A DNA stretch of 64,000 nucleotides from Firmicutes bacterium UBA5766 (GTDB lineage: Bacteria > Bacillota > Desulfotomaculia > Desulfotomaculales > Nap2-2B): NCBI GenBank assembly GCA_002418775.1, contig DIEU01000049.1, positions 32,241 through 96,240 of the forward strand. The letters are read 5' to 3'. Of this stretch, positions 7,163 through 26,548 are shown piece after piece. Position numbers and translations under genes: made by a program. Position 1 is the stretch's first letter, and each line of letters starts with the position of its first letter. The notes under the pieces are model-generated. The model searched no databases. It was not told where the DNA came from and worked only from the letters and a program-made list of their open reading frames with translations.

Positions 7163-7858
7163 TCAGTTTTGGCGCACCATGCACTTTTCTACAAACTCTT
7201 CAAGCTGCTTCGCTATTTTAATAAGTTCTTTATCGTTGTATGTTTCTTCCTTGAGGAATTTCGGATCCAACAGTTTTGAAGGAACAAATTTTTGCAGGAT
7301 ATAAAGCTTTGCTCCTTTGATTGTCTTTGATATTTCCAAAATATCTTCCGGGGTGAGTAAGGATTTTACAATAGTTGTCCGGAATTCGTAATCCAATCCC
7401 GAATTGATGACCAAACTGACGCTCTGCAGAATTTTTTTCAGGTCGACCAGGGAATTTGTGACGCTGCAGTATTTATAAAAAGGCGCTTTAATGTCCATTG
7501 CCACATAATCCACCAGCCCGAGACTGATGATATTTTTTAAAACAGAAGGCAGGCTTCCGTTGGTGTTTAGTTTGACCGGATAGCCGGTTTTCTTTATCTT
7601 TTCCAGGAAGGGAATCAGATCTGCCTGAATTGTGGGCTCGCCGCCGGTAACGACAACCCCGTCAAGTTTTCCCCGCCGCATTTTGAGGAAATCCAATATT
7701 TCAAGTTCCAGTGCCGGGGTCTGACGGGGTTCGGATTTGACGAGTTCCGGATTGTGGCAGTAGGGGCATTTAAAGTTACAGCCCTTCGTGAAAATCACGG
7801 CGCAGATCCGGCCCGGATATTCATTCAGGGAAAACCTTCCAAAGCCTCCGATTAACAT
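7163..7858 (-). CDS. nrdG: anaerobic ribonucleoside-triphosphate reductase activating protein (radical SAM)
   Basis: 'CNFKCPYCHN' is the CxxxCxxC radical-SAM motif. The gene lies 3 nt downstream of nrdD. Confidence 0.9.
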   Translation of the reverse strand: MLIGGFGRFSLNEYPGRICAVIFTKGCNFKCPYCHNPELVKSEPRQTPALELEILDFLKMRRGKLDGVVVTGGEPTIQADLIPFLEKIKKTGYPVKLNTNGSLPSVLKNIISLGLVDYVAMDIKAPFYKYCSVTNSLVDLKKILQSVSLVINSGLDYEFRTTIVKSLLTPEDILEISKTIKGAKLYILQKFVPSKLLDPKFLKEETYNDKELIKIAKQLEEFVEKCMVRQN

Positions 7859-7861
7859 ATA

Positions 7862-10800
7862 TTACACCTTGAAAGTCTTTCGCAGGGCGAATTCCTCCTG
7901 CTTTCCCTTGTTCCACTGGTTTAAAGGCCGCAGGTAGCCGACGACGCGGGAGTAAATCTCACACTGGGCGCCGCATTCCGGGCACTTTTCCTGTTCCCCG
8001 GAAAGGTAACCGTGTGAGGGACAGACGCTGAAGACAGGTGTAAAGGTAAAATAGGGAATATGATAATTTTCACATATTTTACGGATTAATTTTTTAATAA
8101 CAACGGGGTCTTCGACACGTTCGCCGGCAAAGATGTGCAAAACGGTTCCTCCGGTATACTTCGACTGAATTTCATCCTGAAGATCAAGGGCTTCAAAGAC
8201 ATCGTCGGTATAATTGACCGGCAGCTGGGTCGAATTGGTGTAGAAAGGCTCGCCGCCGTTAATAAAGCTGTCCTCGTTTGCGCACATTAGCTGAGGGAAC
8301 TTATCCTTATCTTTTCTGGCCAGACGGTAACTGGTCCCCTCGGCGGGTGTCGCTTCCAGGTTATAGTTGTTTTGTGTCTCCTGCTGAAATTCAATAAGCT
8401 TGCTTCTCATAAAATCAAGCGCCAGGCAGGAGAATTTTTGCCCGGCAGGACTGGCGATGCTCTTCCCCAGCAGGTTAATGCAGGCTTCGTTCATGCCAAG
8501 CAGTCCTATAGTCGAGAAATGGTTTTTCCAGTATGATCCGAGGTGTTCTTTAATGTTTCTGAGGTAATACCTTGCATAGGGGTAGAGGTTGCCCTCGGTC
8601 AGCCTTTCCAGGACCTTTCTTTTTATCTCCAGCGCCTGCTTGGCCATGACCATAAGCGGTTCAAGCCTGACAAAAAAGTCATGCTCGTCATCGGACAGAT
8701 AAGCCAGCCTGGGCATGTTCAGTGTTACAACCCCGATGGAACCGGTAAGCGGGTTGGAACCAAAAAGCCCGCCGCCTTTTTTCTCCAGAGACCTGTTGTC
8801 TATGCGCAGGCGGCAGCACATGCTTCTTGCGTCTTCCGGGTTCATATCGGAATTTATAAAATTAGAAAAGTAGGGAACACCATACTTGGCTGTAACTTCC
8901 CAGAGAATGTTTAGGTCGGAGTTTTCCCAGTTAAAGTCCTTGCTGATATTATAGGTAGGGATCGGGAAAGTGAATACTCTTCCCCTGGCGTCTCCCTCCA
9001 GCATTACCTCCAGGAAGGCCTTGTTGAACATGTCCATTTCCTTTTGAAATTCTTTATAGGTGTCATTTTGCATTTTACCGCCGATGATCACCGGCTGGTT
9101 TAAGAAATACTCGGGCACGGTGAGATCAAGGGTTACATTGGTGAAAGGCGTATTTCCGGTTATAAAAACCTTACCGTTCCTTCTGGCAATCACGGTCTCA
9201 TTCACTGTGCTGGGGCACCAGATCACCCCGGAGTAATCAATCTTTTTTATAGTTTGGATATAGGTATCCTGATGGTCAATTAGCCTCAGGATATACAGCG
9301 TCCTCTTCCCGATGGTCGGATTCCGCGTTCCTACGGTGAAGCCGTACCCGGCATCGACGGTTAACTGCTGTAACCCATTCAGTATTTCTATATTAGTAGT
9401 AGTGATCTTTGAACCTTCATGGCCGTCTGCCTTCAGGTATGTATCCAGAAACAGCCTAGCCTGCCTGCGGCTCATGTTTTTAAGAATGTCCGGGATGAAC
9501 TTTACAGTTTGCCGTGTCTTAAAAAGGCTGTCCAGAAGTTTCTGGGAGGATTCGGCGTTTAGCCGGATCATTTGAGATGACGTCCCCAGGGCTGGAACGG
9601 ATTCTCTGTTGCTGTAGGTGAGTTCCATCCGATCAAGTATGCCTGTAATTTCATTATAATTTTGGGGGCTTTTGGTTCTTGACTGGTAGATCGTGATCCG
9701 ATGAGAATGCCGGTGCCTGGTATAGCTTTCCTTCGACCCCTCGGCTATTATCCAGGCAAGCAGGCGGATTTCATCGTCGGAAATGTCTTTATCCGGGTTG
9801 GTATTTTTGCCAGTAATCGGGATAATCACCGGGGATTTATAAGTGACAACCTTTTCAATTTCTTCAAGGACAAAAGCTTCGTTTGTGTTGAATTTCCTCC
9901 TGACTACCCGGTGTCCCGGCGAAATTAGTTGATCTTGAATCCTGTTCTTGAGGTTATACATCTTACCGGTATACGGTTTTGAAAACATATTTTTAACCGG
10001 CTGGTCTTCAATGGAGCCGGTTTGTATATTGAATGTCTTAATCAGTTGTCCGGCCTTGATGTCCTCGTATCCCGCCCATCCGTCAGGGGTAAGAATTTCG
10101 GTGTCCTCGGAAAGGCATTGAAATCCCACCCTGGTGGGCACGTTTATATTGAAGATAAATTCTTGCAGCGCCTGTTTGACCTCAGTATAGCTCAAGCCGT
10201 CATACCTGATGAAAGGGCTTAAAAGTGTGTCCAGGTTTGAGAACGCCTGCGCGCCGGCGGCTTCCCCCTGGAGGGTATAGAAAAAGTTGACAATTTGGCC
10301 AAGAGCGCTCCGGAAATGTTTGGCAGGTTTGCTCTCCACTTTGCCGGGAACTCCCTTGAAGCCTTCGACCAGCAGGTCGAAAAGATCCCAACCTACGCAG
10401 TAAACGCTGAGTATGTTTAAATCATGAATGTGAAAGTCTCCGCTTATGTGGGCGTCCCTTATTTCCGCGGGGTAAATTTTATTAAGCCAGTATATCTGGC
10501 TGATTTCTGACGAGATGTAGTTGTTTAAGCCCTGCAACGAAAAGGCCATGTTGGAGTTTTCATTTACCTGCCAGTCCAGTTTTTGAAGGTATTGGTCGAC
10601 CAGATCCACATTGGATTTGCCGACAATATCCCTTATCCTGGCATGCTGCTCGCGGTAGATTATATACGCTTTGGCCGTTTTCCGGTAAGGCGAGGAGAGC
10701 AGGACCTCTTCCACTATATCCTGAATCTCTTCAACGGTTGGCGTCTTTCTGGGGATAAGCTGTTCGGCGAGACTGAGAACCTTTAAAGTTATCATTCTGG

Positions 10801-10921
10801 CTATTTTTTCATCAAATTCTTCTGTCGCTTTACCGGCCTTGGCGATCGCGTTGGTGATTTTTTGGGCGTCAAATTTGACAATCCGGTTATCTCTTTTTCT
10901 TATTCTCTTAAACATCTGCAT
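7862..10921 (-). CDS. nrdD: anaerobic (class III) ribonucleoside-triphosphate reductase with N-terminal ATP-cone, interrupted by an in-frame intein
   Basis: ATP-cone 'IRKRDNRIVKFDAQKI'. C-terminal Zn/Cys site 'CPSHG...CPECG' and glycyl-radical motif 'SRVVGYLRP'. 1019 aa in total, 697 aa without the 322-aa insert. Confidence 0.95.
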   Translation of the reverse strand: MQMFKRIRKRDNRIVKFDAQKITNAIAKAGKATEEFDEKIARMITLKVLSLAEQLIPRKTPTVEEIQDIVEEVLLSSPYRKTAKAYIIYREQHARIRDIVGKSNVDLVDQYLQKLDWQVNENSNMAFSLQGLNNYISSEISQIYWLNKIYPAEIRDAHISGDFHIHDLNILSVYCVGWDLFDLLVEGFKGVPGKVESKPAKHFRSALGQIVNFFYTLQGEAAGAQAFSNLDTLLSPFIRYDGLSYTEVKQALQEFIFNINVPTRVGFQCLSEDTEILTPDGWAGYEDIKAGQLIKTFNIQTGSIEDQPVKNMFSKPYTGKMYNLKNRIQDQLISPGHRVVRRKFNTNEAFVLEEIEKVVTYKSPVIIPITGKNTNPDKDISDDEIRLLAWIIAEGSKESYTRHRHSHRITIYQSRTKSPQNYNEITGILDRMELTYSNRESVPALGTSSQMIRLNAESSQKLLDSLFKTRQTVKFIPDILKNMSRRQARLFLDTYLKADGHEGSKITTTNIEILNGLQQLTVDAGYGFTVGTRNPTIGKRTLYILRLIDHQDTYIQTIKKIDYSGVIWCPSTVNETVIARRNGKVFITGNTPFTNVTLDLTVPEYFLNQPVIIGGKMQNDTYKEFQKEMDMFNKAFLEVMLEGDARGRVFTFPIPTYNISKDFNWENSDLNILWEVTAKYGVPYFSNFINSDMNPEDARSMCCRLRIDNRSLEKKGGGLFGSNPLTGSIGVVTLNMPRLAYLSDDEHDFFVRLEPLMVMAKQALEIKRKVLERLTEGNLYPYARYYLRNIKEHLGSYWKNHFSTIGLLGMNEACINLLGKSIASPAGQKFSCLALDFMRSKLIEFQQETQNNYNLEATPAEGTSYRLARKDKDKFPQLMCANEDSFINGGEPFYTNSTQLPVNYTDDVFEALDLQDEIQSKYTGGTVLHIFAGERVEDPVVIKKLIRKICENYHIPYFTFTPVFSVCPSHGYLSGEQEKCPECGAQCEIYSRVVGYLRPLNQWNKGKQEEFALRKTFKV
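9152..10117 (-). mobile_element. intein with LAGLIDADG homing-endonuclease domain (aa 269-590 of NrdD)
   Basis: It starts 'CLSEDTEILT' (Cys1, codon 10117-10115) and has block B 'SPGH'. The dodecapeptide motifs are 'LLAWIIAEGS' and 'FLDTYLKADGH'. It ends 'VFITGN' (Asn codon 9154-9152), followed by Thr+1. The exteins join as 'RVGFQ|TPFTNVTLDL'. Confidence 0.85.
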
Positions 10922-10937
10922 CCGTCCTTTGTATTTG

Positions 10938-10984
10938 TCAAAACACAGGGGTCAAAACACAGGGGAAGAACCGTCCCCCTGTGT
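10938..10984 (-). promoter_or_regulatory. nrdD leader / intercistronic stem-loop with a tandem 14-nt repeat
   Basis: The minus-strand RNA reads ACACAGGGG-N10-CCCCUGUGU, followed by UUUGA and a second CCCCUGUGUUUUGA copy. The plus-strand tandem repeat 'tcaaaacacagggg' occurs twice, at 10938-10965. Confidence 0.4.
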
Positions 10985-11019
10985 CTACACGTTACTATTA
11001 TTTTAAAAACATAACTTCT

Positions 11020-24456: not shown

Positions 24457-25284
24457 TTATCTCATTAAAGAGAGTATCTGCGAGGGTATTTGGTTCGCCT
24501 GAGCTAACATAGCCATGCCGGTTTGCTGCAGGATCTGGTTTCTTGAGTACTCGGTCATTTCTTTGGCCATATCCAGATCGCGGATTCTCGACTCGGCTAC
24601 GGTGAGGTTTTGATTCATATTTCCCAGGTTGGTAATCGTATGCTCAAGGCGGTTTTGATAAGCGCCGAGCTGTGCCCTGCGGGTGGCAAGTTTCTCAATG
24701 GCATTCTGCACTTTCGTGATCGCGGCGTTTGCCCCGGTCACAGTAGTCAGTGACAGTGTTCCTCCTGTTACTATAGCTGAAAAAGCTGCTCTGTTAATGG
24801 CGATGGTCATCTTTTCGGCTGCCAGGGCGCCGACCTGGAAGACCTTGGTGTTGGCGGCGCCTGAGAAGCCGCCGCTTAACAGTTTGATGCTGTTAAAGTT
24901 GACATTGTCCGCCATCTGGTTGATCTGTGCTTTTAAAGCGCTGTATTCAGCATTAATCTTTGCCCGGTCGGTATTGTTCAGACTGTTGGTTGCAGCTTCG
25001 GTGGACAGGTCTTCCAGGCGGACGAGGATACCGTTTATGGTATCCAGCGCACCTTCAGCGGTCTGGATCAGCGAGATTGCGTCCTGGGCGTTCAATTCGG
25101 CTCTTTCCATCCCCTTGAGCTGAGCCCTCATTTTTTCCGAGATGGCCAGTCCGGCGGCATCATCGGCTGCACGGTTGATCCGCAATCCGGAAGACAGCTT
25201 TTCAAGGTTCTTGGTAATGCCAGCCTGGGTAATGCTAAGGTTTTTATTGGCATCCAGCGCCATGGTATTATTGTAAATGTACAC
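24457..25284 (-). CDS. fliC: flagellin (275 aa, short D0/D1-only type), copy 1
   Basis: N-terminus 'LSSGLRINRAADDAAGLAISEKMRAQ' and C-terminus 'QILQQTGMAMLAQANQIPSQILSLMR'. GTG start after AGGAGG. Confidence 0.95.
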   Translation of the reverse strand: MYIYNNTMALDANKNLSITQAGITKNLEKLSSGLRINRAADDAAGLAISEKMRAQLKGMERAELNAQDAISLIQTAEGALDTINGILVRLEDLSTEAATNSLNNTDRAKINAEYSALKAQINQMADNVNFNSIKLLSGGFSGAANTKVFQVGALAAEKMTIAINRAAFSAIVTGGTLSLTTVTGANAAITKVQNAIEKLATRRAQLGAYQNRLEHTITNLGNMNQNLTVAESRIRDLDMAKEMTEYSRNQILQQTGMAMLAQANQIPSQILSLMR

Positions 25285-25729: not shown

Positions 25730-26548
25730 TTATCTCATTAAAGAGAGTATCTGCGAGGGTATTTGGTTTGCCTGAGCTAACATAGCCATACCGGTTTGCT
25801 GCAGGATCTGGTTTCTTGAGTACTCGGTCATTTCTTTGGCCATATCCAGATCGCGGATTCTCGACTCGGCTACGGTGAGGTTCTGGGTCATATTTCCCAG
25901 GTTGGTAACCGTATGCTCAAGGCGGTTTTGATAAGCGCCGAGCTGTGCCCTGCGGGTGGCAAGTGTTTCAATGGCATTCTGTACTTTCGTGATCGCGGCA
26001 TTTGCTCCGGACACAGTACTCAGCTTTAGTGTTCCGCTCGCTACTATTGCACTAAATTTTGCGGCGCCGATGGCGATGGTCATTTTTTCGGCTGCCAGGG
26101 CTCCAATCTGGAAGGCTTTGCCGGCTGAGAAACCGCCGCTTAACAGTTTGATACTGTTAAAGTTAACATTACTCGCCATCTGATTGATCTGTGCTTTTAA
26201 AGCGCTATATTCGGCAGATATCTTTAGCCGGTCGGTATTGTTCAAACTGTTGGTTGCAGCTTCGGTGGCCAGGTCTTCCAGGCGGACGAGGATACCGTTT
26301 ATGGTGTCCAGCGCACCCTCAGCGGTCTGGATCAGCGAGATTGCATCCTGTGCGTTCAACTCGGCTCTTTCCATACCCTTGAGCTGAGCCCTCATTTTTT
26401 CCGAGATGGCCAGTCCGGCGGCGTCATCGGCCGCACGGTTGATCCGCAATCCGGAAGACAGCTTTTCAAGGTTCTTGGTAATGCCAGCCTGGGTAATGCT
26501 AAGGTTTTTATTGGCATCCAGCGCCATAGTGTTATTGTAAATGTACAC
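25730..26548 (-). CDS. fliC: flagellin (272 aa), copy 2
   Basis: The N- and C-terminal ~90 aa are nearly identical to copy 1, and differences cluster in aa ~95-200. GTG start after AGGAGG. Confidence 0.95.
   Translation of the reverse strand: MYIYNNTMALDANKNLSITQAGITKNLEKLSSGLRINRAADDAAGLAISEKMRAQLKGMERAELNAQDAISLIQTAEGALDTINGILVRLEDLATEAATNSLNNTDRLKISAEYSALKAQINQMASNVNFNSIKLLSGGFSAGKAFQIGALAAEKMTIAIGAAKFSAIVASGTLKLSTVSGANAAITKVQNAIETLATRRAQLGAYQNRLEHTVTNLGNMTQNLTVAESRIRDLDMAKEMTEYSRNQILQQTGMAMLAQANQIPSQILSLMR

Follow-up and report, generated by a model that had tools for sequence, protein, structure and literature searches.

A 322-residue insert in the nrdD gene of Firmicutes bacterium UBA5766 (Desulfotomaculales; NCBI GenBank assembly GCA_002418775.1), which encodes the class III (anaerobic) ribonucleoside-triphosphate reductase NrdD, is very probably a class 1 intein that carries a monomeric two-motif LAGLIDADG endonuclease, lies in frame within its host gene and spreads by homing. 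It occupies positions 9152-10117 of a stretch of 64,000 nucleotides (contig DIEU01000049.1, positions 32,241 to 96,240), referred to hereafter as the window. A LAGLIDADG intein in a class III NrdD had been proposed at these positions in an initial annotation made from the sequence alone, and the proposal is supported by the predicted fold of the insert, its sequence landmarks and its precise absence from close alleles; the coordinates given there are exact, with the feature lying on the minus strand.

Coordinates and landmarks of the insert

Read on the minus strand, 9152-10117 is an open run of 322 codons that begins with CLSEDTEILT and ends with VFITGN, as expected from the intact frame described earlier. 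A plus-strand reading of the same segment was ruled out, its translation being full of stops. All the landmarks previously pointed out, namely Cys1, the block B motif SPGH, both LAGLIDADG motifs and a terminal VFITGN followed by Thr+1, could be mapped, and the parts of the intein and of its host gene are as follows.

9152..10117, minus strand: intein, 322 amino acids, Cys1 ... Thr320-Gly321-Asn322, then Thr+1
9803..10117, minus strand: predicted HINT splicing domain, N-terminal half (about residues 1-105), by the beta-strand content of the model; holds blocks A and B
10076-10117, minus strand: block A, CLSEDTEILTPDGW, in the N-terminal HINT half
9902-9928, minus strand: block B, LISPGHRVV, residues 64-72; Ser66 is B:7, His69 is B:10, Arg70 is B:11, Val71 is B:12
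9263..9802, minus strand: predicted LAGLIDADG homing-endonuclease domain (about residues 106-285), by model helices and by Foldseek and profile matches to I-DmoI
9734-9769, minus strand: LAGLIDADG motif 1, IRLLAWIIAEGS, residues 117-128; acidic residue Glu126
9419-9460, minus strand: LAGLIDADG motif 2, ARLFLDTYLKADGH, residues 220-233; acidic residue Asp231
9152..9262, minus strand: HINT splicing domain, C-terminal half, residues 286-322; holds blocks F and G
9185-9235, minus strand: block F, YSGVIWCPSTVNETVIA; Cys301 taken as F:4
9152-9184, minus strand: block G, RRNGKVFITGN; Thr320 is G:5, Gly321 is G:6, Asn322 is G:7
7862..10921, minus strand: nrdD, class III (anaerobic) ribonucleoside-triphosphate reductase precursor; ATP-cone and NrdD barrel, interrupted by the intein (open reading frame list and profiles)
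10118..10921, minus strand: N-extein part, ending ...NVPTRVGFQ; Gln-1 corresponds to Gln224 of Thermotoga maritima NrdD, in specificity loop 2 (4coi alignment)
7862..9151, minus strand: C-extein part, from TPFTNVTLDL... through the stop codon (7862-7864); covers the region of the CCRL thiyl-radical loop and the C-terminal Zn/glycyl-radical domain (NrdD profile stretch 590-1017 of the 1019-residue protein; alignment to 4coi and 8p23)

The assignment of Cys301 to F:4 is based on motif spacing and on analogy with Cys124...Thr144-Gly145-Asn146 of the AceL NrdHF intein (PMC7891396 numbering). A scan of the whole window with Rfam returned nothing, and there is thus no sign of an intron or ribozyme as an alternative to a protein-splicing element.

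Intein-free alleles and the site of insertion

Removal of the insert restores the contiguous NrdD motif PTRVGFQ/TPFTN, where the slash marks the junction, and the rejoined protein aligns through this junction with T. maritima NrdD (ninvPtRvgfQTPFTNVT against lnqPiRt-tQsPyTNfT). Eight NrdD proteins of 695 amino acids, with 94-96% amino acid identity, are without exactly the insert; in these, ...PTRVGFQTPFTNVT... is contiguous and the rejoining is gapless. The predicted joining of NVPTRVGFQ to TPFTNVTLDL and the junctions placed on that basis therefore hold, and the segment, being missing from these eight proteins, is not a conserved domain of close NrdD homologues.

Three intein-free loci (L005-L007) were fetched for comparison at the nucleotide level, representing two distinct sequences as the nrdD genes of L005 and L006 are identical. 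They share about 90.5% nucleotide identity with the window, the sole gap being the 966-bp insert, and the junction in L005 and L007 reads ...CCCACCAGGGTAGGATTTCAG/ACGCCTTTCACCAACGTAACC.... As far as the contigs reach, the window and the three loci have a common gene order consisting of a hexapeptide-repeat gene, nrdD, nrdG and a regulator of the crp family, and the synonymous divergence (dS) of the exteins between the window and the intein-free alleles is about 0.49. Upstream of this block, the intein-containing lineage carries CBS-GGDEF and CTP-transferase genes, and L005 carries Pro_CA_2 and an MFS transporter.

The intein-containing allele is itself on record more than once. The database protein P0080 is identical to the window protein from residue 3 on, intein included, and a look-up found the intein-containing protein on 8 contigs; the four contigs that were read come from four independent samples (alkane-degrading and oil-sands metagenomes and a public run) and agree at every position of the gene (100% identity). 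The GenBank proteins that fall in the 90% cluster of P0080 belong to Desulfotomaculum sp. (46_80 and two third-party-annotation metagenome-assembled genomes; KUK65907.1, HBY04674.1, HAG11519.1) and are labelled just as ribonucleoside triphosphate reductase.

In T. maritima numbering, as counted from the alignment, the insertion lies between Gln224 and Ser225. In T. maritima NrdD, residues 217-228 form the flexible loop 2, through which the specificity effector is linked with the substrate; the base of the substrate forms hydrogen bonds with Arg221 and Gln224 and a stacking contact with Tyr227 (PMC4493059). The intein thus stands directly after the residue equivalent to the substrate-contacting Gln224, and from this position within specificity loop 2 the unspliced precursor should be catalytically dead and the host dependent on splicing. 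Such a need on the part of the host fits the strict conservation of the splice residues described below.

Fold of the insert

Curated profiles recognise the insert below their thresholds. Pfam LAGLIDADG_3 gave 15.9 bits against a cut-off of 22.5 (E 0.015), NCBIfam intein_Nterm 19.4 bits against a cut-off of 24.5 and PT-HINT an E-value of 0.09, and curated profile scans of the nrdD product returned zero matches to models of the C-terminal splicing region. A search of the intein sequence against all PDB chains gave nothing meaningful, and a search with the 43-residue C-terminal block gave chance matches only.

With an alignment of 18 family sequences as input, AlphaFold2 gave a confident model of the insert (mean predicted local distance difference test score, pLDDT, 93.2; predicted template-modelling score, pTM, 0.90), in which a HINT fold is predicted. 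Foldseek matched the model to the solved inteins TliVMA, PhoVMA, PI-PkoII, PI-SceI and PI-PfuI with E-values of 1.7e-15 to 4e-12 (1e-15 to 1e-11 over solved HINT and LAGLIDADG inteins) and a probability of 1.00, the query template-modelling (TM) score against solved endonuclease-containing inteins being 0.6-0.7. The middle part of the model matches I-DmoI (E ~1e-6, target TM-score ~0.6), and the model helices 114-126 and 217-231 are the LAGLIDADG helices, ending in IIAE126-G and LKAD231-G, within a predicted alpha-beta-beta-alpha-beta-beta-alpha core like that of I-DmoI and of PI-SceI domain II. A profile of the family built for the present analysis aligns to positions 1-322 of the window intein with 412 bits, and among solved structures it finds AceL NrdHF (9.8e-10), TliVMA (2e-09), PI-PkoII (2.9e-09) and I-DmoI (5.7e-06); the solved inteins and mini-inteins matched include 7cfv and 2lcj besides 6zgq (AceL NrdHF) and 7qsu (TliVMA). 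Profile searches, by which the HINT and LAGLIDADG domains were expected to be recovered, hence fail at the curated thresholds, while both domains are recovered by AlphaFold with Foldseek and by the family profile.

It is extremely improbable that the insert is instead a lineage-specific, non-excised domain of NrdD or an artefact of assembly or frame. Scores under threshold with the curated intein profiles and the plain labels on the GenBank copies are what such a domain might yield, but it would have to split loop 2 after the Gln equivalent to Gln224 (PMC4493059) and it is absent, with a perfect junction, from alleles of 94-96% identity. Both the fold and all splice-site residues match inteins, and the same module is found in unrelated hosts (methylases, phosphoesterases, ThyA, PolA), always with Cys1 at its start and Asn followed by Ser, Thr or Cys at its end. 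An artefact is further contradicted by the identity of the contigs from four independent samples over the whole gene and by the count of eight contigs.

Splicing residues and class

Conservation of the residues likely to take part in splicing was assessed in 81 NrdD alleles. Cys1, Ser66, His69, Arg313, Thr320, Gly321 and Asn322 are present in 81/81, and the LAGLIDADG acidic positions (126 and 231) are acidic in all of them. Position 70 is Arg in 75 alleles and Lys, Gln or Asn in 6, and position 301 is Cys in 74/81 and Ser in 7/81. The insert thus has the N-terminal nucleophile of class 1 inteins (Cys1), the block B motif TxxH in the form S66-P-G-H69, and a C-terminal Asn followed by Cys, Ser or Thr (Asn322 and Thr+1); the penultimate His, a non-obligatory feature of the class, is absent, with Gly321 in its place. 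Ser at B:7 works in AceL NrdHF as well as the substitution S65T (PMC7891396).

The splicing pathway that can be inferred from the conserved residues and from tested relatives would begin with an N-S acyl shift at Cys1, aided by Ser66 and His69 of the TxxH-type block B, followed by attack of Thr+1 to give a branched intermediate. Cyclisation of Asn322 would then free the intein with neither a penultimate nor a block F His, and an O-N shift would restore the peptide bond. In the cyclisation step, Arg70 (B:11) may serve the oxyanion and the scissile carbonyl in place of His, Gly321 giving it the necessary room, while Thr320 (G:5) probably fixes His69 and Cys301 (F:4) would replace the usual coordinating Asp. 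The corresponding residues have been studied in AceL NrdHF, in which Arg69 lies 2.5 Å from the C-scissile carbonyl, R69A slows splicing, Thr144 hydrogen-bonds His68 and G145H abolishes activity via a modelled clash with Arg69 (PMC7891396). His at the penultimate position is also harmful to the intein of mycobacteriophage Bethlehem gp51 (a recombination directionality factor/metallophosphoesterase), which splices completely; G316H slows its splicing and precursor accumulates (PMC5050341, Kelley et al. 2016).

The presence of a Cys at F:4 raises a different route, class 3-like or dual, in which Cys301 would attack the N-scissile bond to form an internal branched thioester and Cys1 would be redundant or have another role. 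Such a route appears very unlikely. It would be consistent with the F:4 Cys in 74/81 NrdD alleles and 215/234 domains of the wider family, with a Thr at G:5 and a Gly at G:6 as in AceL NrdHF, the best solved profile match, and with the modelled distance of 3.0 Å between the F:4 thiol and the N-scissile carbonyl in that intein (PMC7891396). However, Cys1 is invariant (81/81 and 234/234), and class 3 is by definition without a Cys at position 1 (PMC7891396); class 3 membership was rejected on account of this invariance. At F:4, a Ser takes the place of Cys in 7 NrdD alleles and a Ser or Asp in 19 family domains, and since these are tolerated, the thiol is dispensable. Across inteins as a whole, moreover, only one residue is more common at F:4 than Cys (PMC4031507), and the Bethlehem gp51 intein is treated as class 1 by its authors (PMC5050341). 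With respect to the WCT triplet (Trp B:12, Cys F:4, Thr G:5), the window intein has Val71 and not Trp at B:12, together with Cys301, placed at F:4 by spacing, and Thr320; an MCT variant can still be class 3, as in AceL NrdHF (PMC7891396).

A more speculative proposal, considered quite unlikely, is that the clade may represent the class 1 stock from which the class 3 AceL NrdHF arose by loss of Cys1, and that a Cys1-Cys301 disulfide might place NrdD maturation under redox control. If AceL NrdHF did arise from this clade, the class 3 mechanism would have evolved more than once, from inteins with a well-placed F:4 Cys. Cys1 and Cys301 would lie a few angstroms apart, and a disulfide between them would keep the oxygen-sensitive NrdD unspliced under oxidising conditions. 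Disulfides of active-site Cys residues make splicing redox-sensitive (PMC4031507), and a block F Cys gives redox-sensitive splicing in M. smegmatis DnaBi1 (PMC6195587).

Distribution of the NrdD allele and the wider family

Genomes, one per species, were scanned with a 6-sequence alignment as the query, and 239 relatives were confirmed. The best 80 of the 239 loci, for which residues were counted, are all in NrdD at exactly the same site as the window intein; Cys1 and the Gly-Asn terminus are present in 80/80, Thr stands at +1 in 65 loci and Cys in the other 15, and the frame is intact in 79/80. The hosts of this loop-2 allele include Desulfatibacillum and other Desulfobacterota (among them the complete genome of Desulfonema magnum), Chloroflexota and Patescibacteria as well as Nanoarchaeota, Woesearchaeota, Aenigmatarchaeota and Methanosarcinales, so that DPANN archaea are included. 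Homology searches found the same module in DNA methylases, metallophosphoesterases, an integrase, ThyA, GTP cyclohydrolase I and PolA, with near-invariant termini across hosts (CLSEDTEILT... and ...ARRNGKVFITGN followed by Ser, Thr or Cys).

An exhaustive search of 1.84 billion representative proteins with the family profile identified 31,914 proteins at E <= 0.001, of which 9,658 reach E <= 1e-30; many of the proteins hold 2-9 copies. Members of the family are also found in 275 phage records, of which 138 belong to mycobacteriophages. Residues in the wider family, counted in 234 full-length domains from the best 147 proteins, are distributed as follows.

Position 1: Cys, 234/234
B:7: Thr or Ser, 233/234
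B:10: His, 234/234
B:11: Arg or Lys, 183/234 (78%)
F:4: Cys, 215/234; Ser or Asp in 19
G:6: Gly, 231/234
C-terminal dipeptide: Gly-Asn, 226/234

The Gly-Asn terminus had been described in the initial annotation as a minority configuration. This is true of inteins overall, alternate penultimate residues being present in about 5% of functional inteins (PMC4031507), but not of its own family, in which it is found in 80/80 NrdD alleles and 226/234 domains. Gly-Asn is the signature of a very large clade, in which it is co-adapted and shows no sign of decay; it is regarded as co-adapted and not degenerate because it is family-wide and because His is harmful in the two tested relatives.

NrdD is a hot-spot for the family. 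In related genomes, its inteins were observed at four NrdD sites beyond the loop-2 site, namely TLQGE/SAGAQA, LGAY/CVGWDL (just before a conserved Cys), NPLTG/SIGVVT and NVP/TRVGFQ, the last being six residues upstream of the window intein site. The records concerned are L021 (Desulfobacterales HSG2), L011 (Desulfonema magnum), L028/L031/L038/L054, L063, L073, L083, P0204 and P0207; the nrdD of L021 holds three intein copies and that of the window one. Some members of the family depart from the common pattern. P0057 and P0060, one of which bears the source name 'Helix-turn-helix domain', have Gly or Val at position 1 and end in FTGA or FTGP, and look like non-splicing, possibly free-standing derivatives. 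In the DNA methylase hosts P0046, P0051, P0055, P0059, P0064 and P0067, the splicing blocks are intact and the LAGLIDADG region is unaligned and compositionally biased, which suggests endonuclease decay in the methylase-host copies of the same family.

Mobility

The closest intein shares 81% amino acid identity with that of the window and belongs to a Desulfatibacillum-like member of the Desulfobacterota, the NrdD exteins of which are 65% identical. In the Chloroflexota copies the intein is 71-75% and the extein 57-62% identical, and in a second Desulfotomaculum lineage (46_80) the values are 97.5% for the intein and 95.8% for the exteins. As the identity of the intein exceeds that of the exteins across phyla, and intein-free alleles of 95% identity exist, these comparisons point to horizontal spread by homing, with an endonuclease that is functional or was so recently. 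The endonuclease would cut intein-free nrdD at the loop-2 coding sequence and repair would copy the intein in; homing of this kind would explain the occurrence of one identical site across phyla and the patchy presence among near-identical alleles. The ratio of nonsynonymous to synonymous substitution rates (dN/dS), usable from the two closest pairs with one pair alone covering both regions, is 0.06 for the N-terminal splicing region and lies at 0.08-0.11 for the endonuclease domain, at a saturated dS of about 1.2-1.6. Together with the invariant catalytic residues and the frame kept open in 79/80 alleles, this purifying selection lends indirect support to splicing. The G+C content of the intein (46.3%, exteins 47.5%) is uninformative on foreign origin.

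A domesticated or fixed intein, which splices, has an endonuclease that no longer homes and is inherited vertically with occasional precise loss, is a rather unlikely alternative. By extein distances, the two intein-bearing Desulfotomaculum lineages form a weak group among intein-free lineages that radiate in a star-like manner, a pattern that a single gain in a shared ancestor could produce. The saturated dS against the nearest foreign relative leaves no recent transfer visible, and no co-conversion tract could be detected at the junction, the differences from the intein-free alleles being even at about 10 per 100 nucleotides beside it. Against such fixation, both acidic residues are retained in 81/81 alleles with an endonuclease dN/dS of about 0.08-0.11, and intein identity exceeds extein identity in the nearest relative (81% against 65%) as well as in the Chloroflexota (75% against 59%). 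Inteins also stand at this site in Desulfobacterota, Chloroflexota, Patescibacteria and DPANN archaea, the family is present in 275 phage records, and the endonuclease of one family member needed inactivation for cloning (PMC5050341).

Several points nevertheless weigh against the interpretation of the insert as a class 1 intein that spreads by homing. The curated intein profiles being sub-threshold, the intein call rests on structure prediction and on a family profile built in the course of this analysis. That the intein takes the class 1 route is an assumption based on the invariance of Cys1; the closest solved profile relative, AceL NrdHF, is class 3, and Cys301 is also present, as the block F Cys which AceL NrdHF uses in its class 3 route. 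The compensating role proposed for Arg70 may be non-universal, since 6/81 alleles have another residue at this position and 22% of the family lack Arg or Lys there. With regard to mobility, synonymous divergence from the nearest relative is at saturation (dS about 1.5) and a recent donor was not found, and purifying selection on the endonuclease domain is no proof of cutting.

The host gene and the remainder of the window

In the open reading frame list, nrdD is a frame of 1019 codons at 7862..10921 on the minus strand, with the intein at residues 269-590 and exteins of 268 and 429 residues. Its product carries an ATP-cone domain at the N-terminus by profile scan and matches Pfam NRDD (E 6.5e-192, 639 bits) in two stretches broken by the insert, NCBIfam PRK08270 (1051 bits, cut-off 548) in two stretches abutting the insert and NCBIfam TIGR02487 (572 bits, cut-off 326). 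Two in-frame ATGs are present at the start of the gene (MQMFKR...), at 10921 and 10915 on the minus strand, and the Shine-Dalgarno sequence AAGGA lies 3 nucleotides from the first and 9 from the second. The second Met is the start in most database copies, including P0080 and its GenBank cluster members. As both the Shine-Dalgarno spacing and the database starts favour it, the true start is probably the ATG at 10915, giving a product of 1017 and a mature, extein-only NrdD of 695 amino acids; the earlier figures of 1019 residues and, after removal of 322, of 697 are correct by the coordinates of the reading frame and are probably each two residues too long for the protein.

Upstream of nrdD, at about 10925-10990 on the minus strand, an inverted repeat ACACAGGGGG...CCCCTGTGT is followed by two tandem copies of CCCCTGTGTTTTGAC, which stop about 15 nucleotides upstream of the first start codon. 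The inverted repeat does not resemble a standard NrdR box and may serve as an operator or end transcription of the upstream hexapeptide-repeat gene. Downstream, the host context outside the element is as follows.

7163..7858, minus strand: nrdG, radical-SAM activase, directly downstream of nrdD in the same operon (open reading frame list; Fer4_12 and Radical_SAM families on identical contigs; same order in intein-free relatives)

The intein had also been described as the only clearly selfish element of the window, a statement that was checked in part and stands to that extent. The family profile found no second intein of the family among the 97 window open reading frames of at least 90 amino acids, and no transposase or integrase family was listed (matches at E <= 1e-6) in Pfam scans of 30 large open reading frames. 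The scanned frames gave flagellar, glycosylation and metabolic families only, one of them having no match. Most of the window, 14035-57854, is taken up by a flagellar regulon (FliD, FlgK, MotAB, FliF/G/H/I, FliK, FlhA, FlhF, FliM, and tandem flagellin genes at 24457-25284 and 25730-26548) and by genes for nonulosonic acid and glycosylation (NeuB, UDP-GlcNAc 2-epimerase, Maf-like).

Significance

Curated profile libraries miss the window intein, and in GenBank the labels of its copies do not set them apart from ordinary NrdD. Most of the clade, which numbers about 32,000 representative proteins at E <= 0.001, probably lacks annotation as well, which distorts protein lengths, domain calls and phylogenies for NrdD, for DNA methylases and for other hosts. 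The locus offers a clean natural presence/absence polymorphism among alleles of about 95% identity, and with the intein being closer across phyla than its host gene, it is useful for the study of the homing cycle in anaerobic, hydrocarbon-degrading consortia. Its position in loop 2 of an essential anaerobic enzyme would make splicing a compulsory maturation step. The combination of Gly-Asn, Arg at B:11 and Cys at F:4 represents a naturally optimised alternative to the His-Asn active site, with thousands of variants to mine. The finding leaves the current understanding of inteins unchanged, and its value lies chiefly in annotation and in a tidy example of the homing cycle.

Comparison with known systems

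The intein of mycobacteriophage Bethlehem gp51 (residues 95-411, ending ...VWC...HLTGN/S) is matched by the family profile with an E-value of 9e-45 and aligned to its C-terminus. It resembles the window intein in Cys1, in block B (xNHRVV), in the VWC of block F and in its LTGN end, and is likewise a two-motif LAGLIDADG intein, of 317 amino acids against 322 here. It differs in that the identity is about 22% (BLASTP), the host protein and site are others and the genome is that of a phage; its +1 residue is Ser instead of Thr, and its block A reads CSWTNARAVT instead of CLSEDTEILT. A mutant inactivating its endonuclease, R157W, was the one recovered for cloning, owing to toxicity related to the endonuclease (PMC5050341).

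Among solved structures, the family profile matches AceL NrdHF-1-1 best (PDB 6zgq; Hoffmann et al. 2020; PMC7891396); the profile alignment covers the N-terminal half only, blocks F and G being matched by published residue numbers. It shares S65 at B:7, H68 at B:10, R69 at B:11, C124 at F:4 and T144-G145-N146 at G:5-7, is likewise without the histidines at F:13 and G:6, and its host gene is also a ribonucleotide reductase. In contrast to the window intein, it has Ala at position 1 and is a proven class 3 intein acting via Cys124; it is naturally split with no LAGLIDADG domain, a GIY-YIG gene lying between its halves, and it sits in NrdHF, a class Ib beta-subunit fusion, and not in NrdD.

The solved archaeal and yeast LAGLIDADG inteins (TliVMA 7qsu/7qss, PhoVMA 7qst, PI-PkoII 2cw7, PI-SceI 1vde and PI-PfuI 1dq3) similarly have a HINT domain split by a LAGLIDADG domain, but their sequence identity to the window intein is 10-13%. 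These inteins generally end in His-Asn and have Asp at F:4. Their chains, of 361-537 amino acids, are longer than the 322 amino acids here, and the window intein is therefore probably more compact, as judged from the model.

The nrdD gene is a known target of self-splicing mobile elements. The T4 nrdD element is a group I RNA intron and not an intein. Putative nrdD inteins are on record in the Clostridium phages c-st and D-1873 (Dwivedi et al. 2013, PMC3653736), and these are likened to the window intein by host gene alone. In the accessible part of the literature, neither a description of the loop-2 NrdD allele nor a name for the Gly-Asn clade was found. Inteins of ribonucleotide reductase genes and class 1 LAGLIDADG inteins with a penultimate Gly are already known, as is the identical protein, which is in GenBank unlabelled as intein-containing. 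Set beside these systems, the window intein is sound but ordinary, an intact member of a very large and already sampled family.

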